Origin: Escherichia coli
GTDB lineage: Bacteria > Pseudomonadota > Gammaproteobacteria > Enterobacterales > Enterobacteriaceae
DNA length: 64,000 nucleotides
Strand: one strand, 5' to 3'
Assembly (NCBI RefSeq): GCF_011045215.1
Contig: NZ_CP049201.1
Shown: positions 54,401-57,400 of the stretch, one piece after another
How positions within the stretch are numbered: the first letter of the stretch is position 1
Layout of the letters: every line of letters starts with the position of its first letter
Position numbers: made by a program

Positions 54401-57400
54401 ACTGGTGATTAATTTCCAGATCCCTCATTTGCATCAACAAGTGTTGAAAGCGGCACCCATTGTCGCCCAACCAACGCCAATGGATGCGGTGTTTAAATTC
54501 GACCCCCTCTCGGCTGGCGGCACCGCTATTTTTATTGCGGCGATTATCTCTATCTTCATCCTCGGTGTGGGGATCAAGAAAGGTATTGGCGTCTTTGCCG
54601 AAACGCTAATTAGTCTGAAGTGGCCGATACTGTCGATTGGCATGGTGCTGGCGTTCGCCTTCGTCACCAACTATTCTGGCATGTCCACCACGCTGGCGCT
54701 GGTACTGGCAGGTACAGGCGTGATGTTCCCGTTCTTCTCACCGTTTCTCGGCTGGCTGGGCGTATTCCTTACCGGCTCGGACACCTCCTCTAACGCCCTG
54801 TTTGGTTCACTGCAATCGACCACGGCGCAGCAAATCAACGTCTCTGACACTCTGCTGGTGGCAGCAAATACCAGCGGCGGCGTAACTGGCAAGATGATCT
54901 CCCCGCAATCTATCGCCGTGGCCTGCGCCGCGACGGGCATGGTGGGCCGAGAATCTGAACTGTTCCGCTACACCGTGAAGCACAGTCTGATTTTTGCCAG
55001 CGTTATCGGCATTATCACCCTGCTGCAGGCGTATGTGTTTACCGGGATGTTAGTCTCGTAAATCAATAAAGCCGGATGATCGTCAATATCATCCGGCTTC
55101 ATTTACATTATTCTGTCTTATTAATTGAAAATCATTTCTCGCTTTATTATCCATGCAGCAATAATGTTTTGCGTTCAGATAACCTGCTAAATAATTAAGA
55201 GCGTGAGAACATCTATTTTTTTATCACGCAAAACAAGTCTGTATTAATTATGTTCGCTTGATGAGCAAACACCGTTCTATCTGTTGCTTTTGCAATCTTA
55301 ATCGTTAAAACTACCAACGAATTTATATAGTTACGTTGTGAAATGTTGTTAATTTTTTGTTTATTGAAATTTCGTAAAAATAGCCAGATAGACATCGTAT
55401 AGGGGTTATTCTTATAAATTTCACCTGTTTTCTATCAATGATGTCGTTTTCTTAAGAATGGAGGAAATTATTAAAGAAGATAAAGCATAAAACTATTTCT
55501 CCCAGTTACGAATTTTTTAACATTGTTTTGTCACTTGCGTTATTAATGAATAAGAAATTTAAATATAAGAAATCGCTTTTAGCGGCTATTTTGAGTGCAA
55601 CCCTGTTAGCCGGTTGTGATGGCGGTGGCTCCGGATCTTCCTCCGATACGCCGCCTGTAGATTCTGGAACAGGGTCTTTGCCGGAAGTGAAACCTGATCC
55701 AACACCAAACCCGGAGCCGACGCCTGAGCCAGCGCCGGACCCAGAGCCTACGCCAGAACCGATACCTGATCCTGAACCAACACCAGAACCGGAGCCAGAA
55801 CCTGTTCCTACGAAAACGGGTTATCTGACCCTGGGCGGAAGCCAGCGGGTAACTGGTGCTACCTGTAATGGTGAATCCAGCGATGGCTTTACATTTAAAC
55901 CTGGCGAGGACGTTACTTGCGTGGCGGGTAACACGACAATTGCCACCTTCAACACTCAGTCAGAAGCTGCGCGTAGCTTGCGTGCGGTTGAAAAAGTGTC
56001 GTTTAGCCTTGAGGACGCGCAAGAACTGGCGGGCTCCGATGACAAGAAAAGCAATGCGGTTTCGCTGGTAACGTCCAGTAACAGCTGTCCGGCGAATACA
56101 GAACAGGTTTGTCTGACGTTCTCCTCGGTGATCGAGAGTAAACGCTTCGACTCGCTGTATAAGCAAATCGATCTGGCACCGGAAGAGTTCAAAAAGCTGG
56201 TCAATGAAGAGGTGGAAAACAATGCTGCGACCGATAAAGCGCCATCCACTCATACTTCACCGGTCGTGCCCGTCACCACGCCGGGAACAAAACCGGATCT
56301 GAACGCTTCCTTCGTGTCGGCTAACGCGGAACAGTTTTATCAGTATCAACCCACTGAAATCATTCTCTCTGAAGGTCGACTGGTCGATAGCCAGGGATAT
56401 GGTGTTGCTGGCGTCAACTACTACACCAATTCAGGCCGTGGCGTGACAGGGGAAAATGGTGAATTTTCCTTTAGCTGGGGCGAAACCATCTCCTTTGGTA
56501 TCGATACCTTTGAACTGGGTTCAGTGCGCGGCAATAAGTCGACCATTGCGCTGACTGAACTGGGTGATGAAGTTCGCGGGGCGAATATTGATCAGCTTAT
56601 TCATCGCTATTCGACGACCGGGCAAAATAATACCCGTGTTGTTCCGGACGATGTACGCAAGGTCTTTGCCGAATATCCCAACGTGATCAACGAGATTATC
56701 AATCTCTCGTTATCCAACGGTGCGACGCTGGGGGAAGGTGAGCAAGTCGTTAATCTGCCTAACGAATTTATTGAGCAGTTTAAGACGGGTCAGGCCAAAG
56801 AGATCGATACCGCGATTTGTGCGAAAACCGATGGTTGTAACGAGGCTCGCTGGTTCTCGCTGACGACGCGCAATGTTAATGACGGCCAGATTCAGGGCGT
56901 TATTAACAAGCTGTGGGGTGTGGATGAAGATTACAAATCGGTGACGAAATTCCACGTCTTTCATGACTCTACCAACTTCTATGGTAGCACCGGTAATGCG
57001 CGCGGTCAGGCGGTGGTGAATATCTCTAACGCGGCCTTCCCGATTCTGATGGCGCGTAATGATAAAAACTACTGGCTGGCGTTTGGCGAAAAACGCGCCT
57101 GGGATAAAAACGAGCTGGCGTACATTACGGAAGCGCCTTCTCTTGTTGAGCCGGAAAACGTTACGCGCGATACCGCCACCTTTAACCTGCCGTTTATTTC
57201 GCTGGGGCAAGTGGGCGATGGCAAGCTGATGGTTATCGGTAACCCACACTACAACAGCATTTTGCGTTGCCCGAACGGTTACAGCTGGAACGGGGGCGTT
57301 AATAAAGACGGGCAGTGTACGCTCAGCGGTGATTCAGATGACATGAAGCACTTCATGCAGAACGTACTGCGCTATCTGTCCGACGATAAATGGACGCCGG

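Follow-up and report, generated by a model that had tools for sequence, protein, structure and literature searches.

The AT-rich glcA-sslE intergenic region of Escherichia coli as the control region for the sslE type II secretion operon

Introduction

In the Escherichia coli genome studied here, the mucinase gene sslE (yghJ) is preceded by about 440 bp of unusually AT-rich DNA, which raises the question of whether this DNA is a leader, a promoter region or an overlooked gene, and of how it controls the operon that it precedes. A colonisation factor that degrades mucin, SslE is also one of the leading antigens for a broad-spectrum E. coli vaccine, and its operon builds the machine that exports heat-labile toxin in enterotoxigenic E. 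coli (ETEC). If the positions of the promoter, the Fis site and the H-NS platform are known for a strain, it becomes easier to foresee when that strain expresses the antigen. We studied the locus in a 64-kb stretch of DNA, hereafter the window, to which all positions refer unless stated otherwise. An earlier note on the window had described 55101-55542 as a long, AT-rich, non-coding leader, typical of H-NS-silenced promoters and a candidate site for temperature or nucleoid-protein control. Our analysis makes it very probable that 55062-55545 comprises all of the regulatory DNA for the sslE (yghJ)-pppA-yghG/gspS-beta-gspC-M operon, which H-NS/StpA repress in the cold and Fis stimulates at 37 °C. 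This operon encodes the type II secretion system beta together with its substrate, the mucinase SslE. The control logic of the region is already published (2007, 2016) and is ordinary rather than new; its recovery from the sequence confirms the heuristic applied earlier and adds no new biology.

Results

The AT-rich stretch is a non-coding intergenic region

The G+C content of 55101-55542 (442 bp) is 29.2%, compared with 51.8% for the whole window, and segments of the same length that are equally low make up 0.07% of all (the minimum, 0.287, starts at 55118). Homopolymer runs of A or T of at least 4 nt occur 13 times, which corresponds to 29/kb and is three times the density in the window (9.7/kb); against shuffles of the same composition, the excess is only modest (13 vs 9.3 ± 2.6). 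Thus, the strong AT-richness ahead of sslE that the earlier note had pointed out is real, and its many A/T tracts are there as well, largely as a matter of composition.

The stretch makes up nearly the entire glcA-sslE intergenic region. Its upstream boundary is the intrinsic terminator of glcA, which lies 8 nt past the glcA stop codon and is kept in all E. coli rows aligned as well as in E. albertii. At the downstream end, the sslE start codon at 55546 is backed by a lipoprotein signal peptide, MNKKFKYKKSLLAAILSATLLAGC, which ends in the lipobox LAGC, and the same start is used in the RefSeq annotation of a strain that is 100% identical over the region. In that strain, pppA, gspS2 (yghG), gspC and gspD follow downstream of sslE and the operon is intact.

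An unannotated small protein or small RNA gene within the stretch would be a quite different answer to the question, and we regard it as highly improbable. Open reading frames (ORFs) do exist mechanically, namely a minus-strand frame of 60 aa (55213-55395), a plus-strand frame of 40 aa and a pair of very short upstream ORFs (uORFs), one of which, with 10 codons (55458-55490), is intact in all E. coli rows aligned. However, E. albertii has three stops within the minus-strand frame, and several E. coli strains have lost either its stop or the frame itself; the 40-aa frame is likewise broken in E. albertii and in BL21. The uORF of 10 codons has no Shine-Dalgarno (SD) sequence of its own and loses its ATG in E. 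albertii, and all three of its substitutions within E. coli change the amino acid. This disruption of the frames, seen in E. albertii and in part of the E. coli strains, led us to reject the small-ORF readings. Moreover, neither K-12 MG1655 nor five other RefSeq genomes have an annotated feature in the interval; in K-12, small proteins are annotated elsewhere nearby in the same genome stretch, yet none falls within it. A scan of 52800-55800 against Rfam (E <= 1) gave no match in the AT-rich stretch, the only match being C0719 in the neighbouring spacer. The description of the stretch as non-coding is therefore upheld.

A published promoter under nucleoid-protein control maps within the stretch

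Control of this operon has been described in ETEC H10407 and in uropathogenic E. coli (UPEC). According to Yang et al. (2007, J Bacteriol 189:142), as reported in PMC5012682, sslE of ETEC H10407 is co-transcribed with 13 downstream genes, and the two studies (Yang 2007; Tan 2016, PMC5012682) place one promoter upstream of yghJ/sslE for a 14-gene sslE-pppA-yghG-gspC-M operon. H-NS and StpA act as repressors of the ETEC operon, whose expression is higher at 37 °C than at 22 °C, and the two purified proteins bind the regulatory DNA of sslE and keep open complexes from forming (Yang 2007, as cited in PMC5012682). In UPEC, loss of hns derepresses expression at 22 °C by 3.5-fold in UTI89 and by 2.2-fold in EC958, an effect that can be complemented (PMC5012682). 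The yghJ/glcA intergenic region of K-12 is H-NS-bound in every chromatin immunoprecipitation-microarray (ChIP-chip) data set in the compilation of Panyukov & Ozoline (2013, PMC3661553, Table 1). Lang et al. place yghJ among the genes with multiple H-NS motif-like sequences.

Fis acts antagonistically to H-NS at the sslE promoter (PMC5012682). It approximately doubles promoter activity, and either deletion of fis or mutation of F2, a set of three overlapping Fis sites at -41 to -68, halves the activity of the reporter in UTI89; the reporter fragment yields about 400 Miller units in a Fis-dependent manner. A further site, F1, is centred at -138, and its mutation had no effect on the reporter (PMC5012682). 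In that report, the UPEC transcription start site (TSS) determined by 5'-RACE agrees with the ETEC mapping, which gives a single TSS in two pathotypes. In E. coli W, SslE secretion was found only at 37 °C in lysogeny broth, a rich medium. Taken together, the published H-NS/StpA binding, the repression at 22 °C and the K-12 ChIP-chip data bear out the earlier proposal of an H-NS-silenced, environmentally induced promoter, and the literature on this same locus likewise supports temperature and nucleoid-protein control of the secretion locus, through H-NS/StpA in the cold.

We located these elements in the window by means of the promoter-cloning primers of Tan et al. (5570/5571, S1 Table), which have 0 mismatches in S88 and are the same sequences as those used for UTI89. 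The reporter fragment that they delimit corresponds to 55062-55351. Because this active fragment ends at 55351, the promoter and the TSS must lie at least 195 bp upstream of the sslE ATG; a promoter right beside the start codon, which the earlier note had named as the finding that would speak against its view, is thus not what the locus has. Fis sites were searched for with a strict inclusion/exclusion rule, G..[^A]R.....Y[^T]..C, which demands G and C at -7 and +7 and R and Y at -3 and +3, and which bars A from -4 and T from +4. Matches were found at 55173-55187, at three overlapping positions within 55252-55277 and, unrelated to these, at 55397-55411 in the leader. We placed the +1 at about 55319 because the matches corresponding to F1 and F2 then fit the published -138 and -41 to -68. 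The assignment of F2 was cross-checked in the alignment, where the single UTI89/EC958 nucleotide difference given in the paper is exactly one A/T polymorphism, at 55271. The T-run between F1 and F2 is 1 nt shorter in UTI89-like strains, and 6 bp separate the end of F2 from the inferred -35 element. An alternative promoter (-10 TATAGT at 55326, TSS about 55339) was rejected, since it would put the Fis sites at -158 and -62 to -87 and so contradict the published distances.

The resulting layout is given in Table 1. It follows that leader is too simple a name for 55101-55542, which starts with about 180 bp of regulatory DNA, continues with the promoter and ends with about 227 bp of 5' untranslated region (UTR). 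The word leader is right for the last of these and wrong for the upstream 218 bp, which are promoter and promoter-upstream DNA. The part upstream of the core promoter is likely to be the binding platform for H-NS/StpA. The earlier interpretation was therefore correct as far as it went, and what it lacked was the promoter within the region, the Fis site with its growth-phase and nutrient control, and the prior publication.

Table 1. Coordinates of the glcA-sslE regulatory region and its flanking genes in the window.
Feature	Position	Strand	Details
glcA	53379-55061	+	Upstream gene; stop at 55061
glcA intrinsic terminator hairpin	55069-55099	+	12-bp stem, 7-nt loop; terminator scan
AT-rich DNA upstream of the promoter	55101-55283	+	About -218 to -36; G+C about 0.31; contains F1 and F2
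Putative Fis site F1 (GTTCAGATAACCTGC)	55173-55187	+	Centred at about -138/-139; sole strict isolated match in the upstream half
Putative Fis-binding region F2	55252-55277	+	Three overlapping 15-mers starting at 55252, 55256 and 55263; about -67 to -42
Inferred sigma-70 core promoter	55284-55312	+	-35 TTGCTT 55284-55289, 17-bp spacer, -10 AAAACT 55307-55312
Inferred 5' UTR of sslE-pppA-gspS2-gspC-M	55319-55545	+	About 227 nt, 73% A+U; TSS 55319 ± 2
sslE (yghJ), lipoprotein M60 metalloprotease/mucinase, operon gene 1	55546-60105	+	ORF; RefSeq; lipobox LAGC

Several points weigh against this assignment. The coordinates of the TSS and of the -10 and -35 elements derive from published distances and are good to ± 2 nt. 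F2 spans 26 bp in the window compared with 28 bp as published, and the contact of Fis with F2 is putative by the statement of Tan et al. themselves (PMC5012682). The inferred hexamers are poor, with 3/6 consensus positions each, and a stringent sigma-70 scan of 54900-55700 returned no promoter above threshold; a weak sslE promoter would fit both this failed scan and the dependence on an activator. The dependence on hns at 37 °C varies by strain, from about 7-fold in EC958 to 1.7-fold in UTI89 (PMC5012682). The published experiments were all done on the alleles of other strains. Secondary matches to the H-NS 10-mer motif are not in excess (4 vs 3.6 ± 1.8 expected from composition). Finally, helical phasing of AA/TT, a Fourier proxy for curvature, is marginal, with z = 2.8 at 10.0 bp among 13 periods tested over the whole intergenic region.

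The region has also been viewed as a promoter island, that is, as DNA with dense, overlapping, weak promoter-like sites on both strands that is bound by RNA polymerase and H-NS, silenced in a heterochromatin-like manner and transcribed into mostly abortive or spurious RNAs, so that no one defined promoter exists. K-12 yghJ/glcA (3117080, 374 bp) is indeed among 78 promoter islands, H-NS-bound in all the studies compiled (PMC3661553), and our own loose scan picked up 22 weak promoter-like sites within 500 bp, of which 12 are on the plus and 10 on the minus strand. Yet weak -10-like hexamers are expected in any DNA of 29% G+C, and in the stringent scan the region contained 0 promoter-like sites compared with 2.3 ± 1.5 in shuffles, so that its status as an island depends on the prediction algorithm. 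The concordant single TSS, mapped independently in two pathotypes (PMC5012682), and the defined Fis dependence of the reporter fragment also argue for one functional promoter. We therefore hold the promoter-island account to be possible but doubtful; it does not truly exclude a single regulated sslE promoter and is compatible with it.

Composition rather than motif would direct H-NS to the region

In the region, the proposed high-affinity H-NS motif tCGATAAATT has one match with at most two mismatches (55320-55329, minus strand). The AA/TT phasing described above has no counterpart at 10.5 bp, nor does it appear in either half of the intergenic region; BEND-IT predicted curvature for the sslE promoter region (PMC5012682).

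The region is common within the species: of 5426 complete E. coli genomes, 4059 have it, with 90-100% identity. The yghJ/sslE promoter of ETEC H10407 and UPEC UTI89 is the same locus, with Fis layout, primer sites and downstream operon shared, and differs from that of the window by alleles only. K-12 departs from the window at 5 of 484 nt, and the B2 strains used by Tan et al. at about 5-6%; the allelic differences include a G in the window for A at the inferred +1 (55319) and an A for T at 55271 in F2.

Among the species-representative genomes scanned, Escherichia sp. E1V33 and E. albertii share the glcA-sslE arrangement. Identity to E. albertii is 93% for F1 (14/15 nt), 86% for the core promoter and 80% for the last 65 nt of the UTR, and the E. 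albertii hexamers (TTGATT / AAAAAT) retain key positions. The rest of the region is only 60-69% identical, with a G+C content still at 30-36%. Such a pattern would be expected if RNA polymerase and Fis used discrete sites and the bulk of the DNA were selected for its composition. Because E. albertii keeps composition and not sequence, and because motif matches stay at the level set by composition, we infer that AT-richness itself is the signal that targets H-NS to this region.

F1, although dispensable in the plasmid reporter, is the best-conserved upstream element in E. albertii and may serve another regulator or have a role in the chromosomal context.

One strain departs from the usual arrangement. 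In TW01221 (NZ_CP074725.1, locus 3001-3765), an IS1A element lies about 67 bp past the glcA stop, only the first 52 bp of the spacer remain, and corA and another IS1 copy stand in place of the sslE side. This layout points to an IS1-mediated rearrangement that deleted the promoter region. Loci with sslE homologues were also seen in Vibrio, Photobacterium and Aliivibrio. Two short contigs of a metagenome-assembled genome labelled 'Collinsella sp.' (JAIJJM010000973.1 and JAIJJM010000705.1) encode SslE that is 94-99% identical to the E. coli protein; their presence in this bin is most likely due to E. coli contamination.

The leader RNA shows little sign of a regulatory structure

The length of the leader raises the further question of whether control is also exerted on the RNA. 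Its composition (A72 C25 G36 T94) makes it unlike a Rho utilisation (rut) site, given that G outnumbers C (36 vs 25). sslE has no SD sequence, since the best SD:anti-SD pairing reaches a dG of +1.2 kcal/mol (55525-55545). The leader contains a single strong SD-like site, an orphan GGAGG at 55461-55465 (dG -9.3) that lies 81 nt upstream of the AUG; E. albertii has it too, but no start codon following it is conserved.

These features could indicate that the 227-nt AU-rich leader is a regulator at the RNA level, beyond the role of its DNA in H-NS binding: as an RNA thermometer or long-range anti-initiation helix that would hide the SD-less sslE start, as a standby or decoy ribosome site, or as a target of TypA/BipA or NusA. 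The SD-less start and the conserved orphan GGAGG fit this idea, as do the minimum free energy and consensus folds, both of which pair the U-rich segment at about 55351-55367 with the start region at about 55541-55560 through 17 pairs, mostly kept in E. coli. In addition, a transposon screen found typA and nusA as positive factors (PMC5012682). However, the leader folds no better than its shuffles (z = -0.09; 88 of 200 shuffles fold as well), and the duplex between the U-rich segment and the translation initiation region, at -18.8 kcal/mol, is matched by 6% of shuffled leaders (p about 0.06). The predicted accessibility of the start region is flat between 22 and 42 °C (0.24 to 0.23), the consensus fold of seq­uences (seven in all) has a positive covariation term with a compensatory change in only 2 of 72 pairs, and the leader matches no Rfam family. 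Furthermore, the published temperature effect is transcriptional and hns-dependent (PMC5012682). On balance, an RNA-level regulator in this leader seems unlikely to us.

An RNA thermometer as the main explanation was rejected, with a fold z of about 0, no convincing covariation and a long-range pairing that was neither significant nor responsive to temperature. That the leader adds an undescribed form of post-initiation control, through ribosome standby or decoy or through long-range anti-initiation involving the GGAGG and the U-rich segment 55351-55367, we consider improbable; if it did, such a layer could explain why TypA/BipA and NusA were positive in the screen.

Discussion

A model for thermoregulated expression of sslE

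In the model that we favour, transcription of the operon would start from a single weak sigma-70 promoter in the middle of AT-rich DNA, with the TSS at about 55319. At ambient temperature, H-NS together with StpA, probably as heteromers, coats the AT-rich DNA around the promoter, so that RNA polymerase forms no open complex, as shown in ETEC and UPEC and reported by ChIP in K-12. Downstream of +1, the AT-rich leader DNA may let the H-NS filament run further or bridge across the promoter. At 37 °C, repression by H-NS/StpA weakens, and in fast-growing cells Fis, whose binding is putative, would occupy F2 (about -42 to -67) and approximately double the activity. Fis probably recruits or contacts RNA polymerase and competes with or displaces H-NS, and the dependence on Fis may account for the requirement for rich medium. 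Between them, the H-NS/StpA and Fis controls would thus cause SslE to be made at body temperature in rich medium.

Relation to known systems

The virF promoter of Shigella and enteroinvasive E. coli has as its documented sensor a DNA bend that lies between two H-NS sites and responds to temperature, whereas the phasing signal at sslE is only marginal. The two promoters are alike in that virF is also AT-rich, repressed by H-NS at low temperature (below 32 °C) and activated by Fis at 37 °C (comparison by PMC5012682). The heat-labile toxin genes eltAB of ETEC resemble sslE in being thermoregulated by H-NS, and therefore the toxin and its secretion machinery are co-regulated; they differ in that H-NS binds downstream of the eltAB promoter, inside eltA. 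The gspA-gspC region of K-12, which belongs to the type II secretion system alpha, is likewise an H-NS-regulated type II secretion locus and a listed promoter island (3453428_392). It is, however, a separate locus with a divergent promoter architecture and is silent in the laboratory, whereas many strains have an active sslE promoter at 37 °C.

Further observations in the window

Upstream of glcA, the small RNA C0719 (Rfam RF00117, 299 bits, full length) lies at 53079-53300 on the minus strand, in the glcB-glcA spacer and antisense to the glc operon. Downstream of sslE, the mechanical ORF of pppA begins with an ATG at 60180 (60180-61241, 353 aa), whereas the equivalent of the RefSeq start is at 60432 (269 aa). 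By the RefSeq start, the gap between sslE and pppA amounts to 326 bp, which is open in frame and probably untranslated.

In NZ_CP015241.1, a strain 100% identical to the window over 55101-55542, yghT is a pseudogene with an internal stop (13111-13803 of the locus, corresponding to about 32600-33300 of the window). Two further spacers in the window are nearly as AT-rich, with a G+C content of about 0.31. One, at 30806-31096, separates gss and pitB; the other, a divergent spacer at 44110-44471, is flanked by yghO on one side and on the other by a fatty-acyl-AMP ligase / serine palmitoyltransferase (spt) cluster with no K-12 counterpart. Both are candidate H-NS-bound promoter regions of the sslE type.

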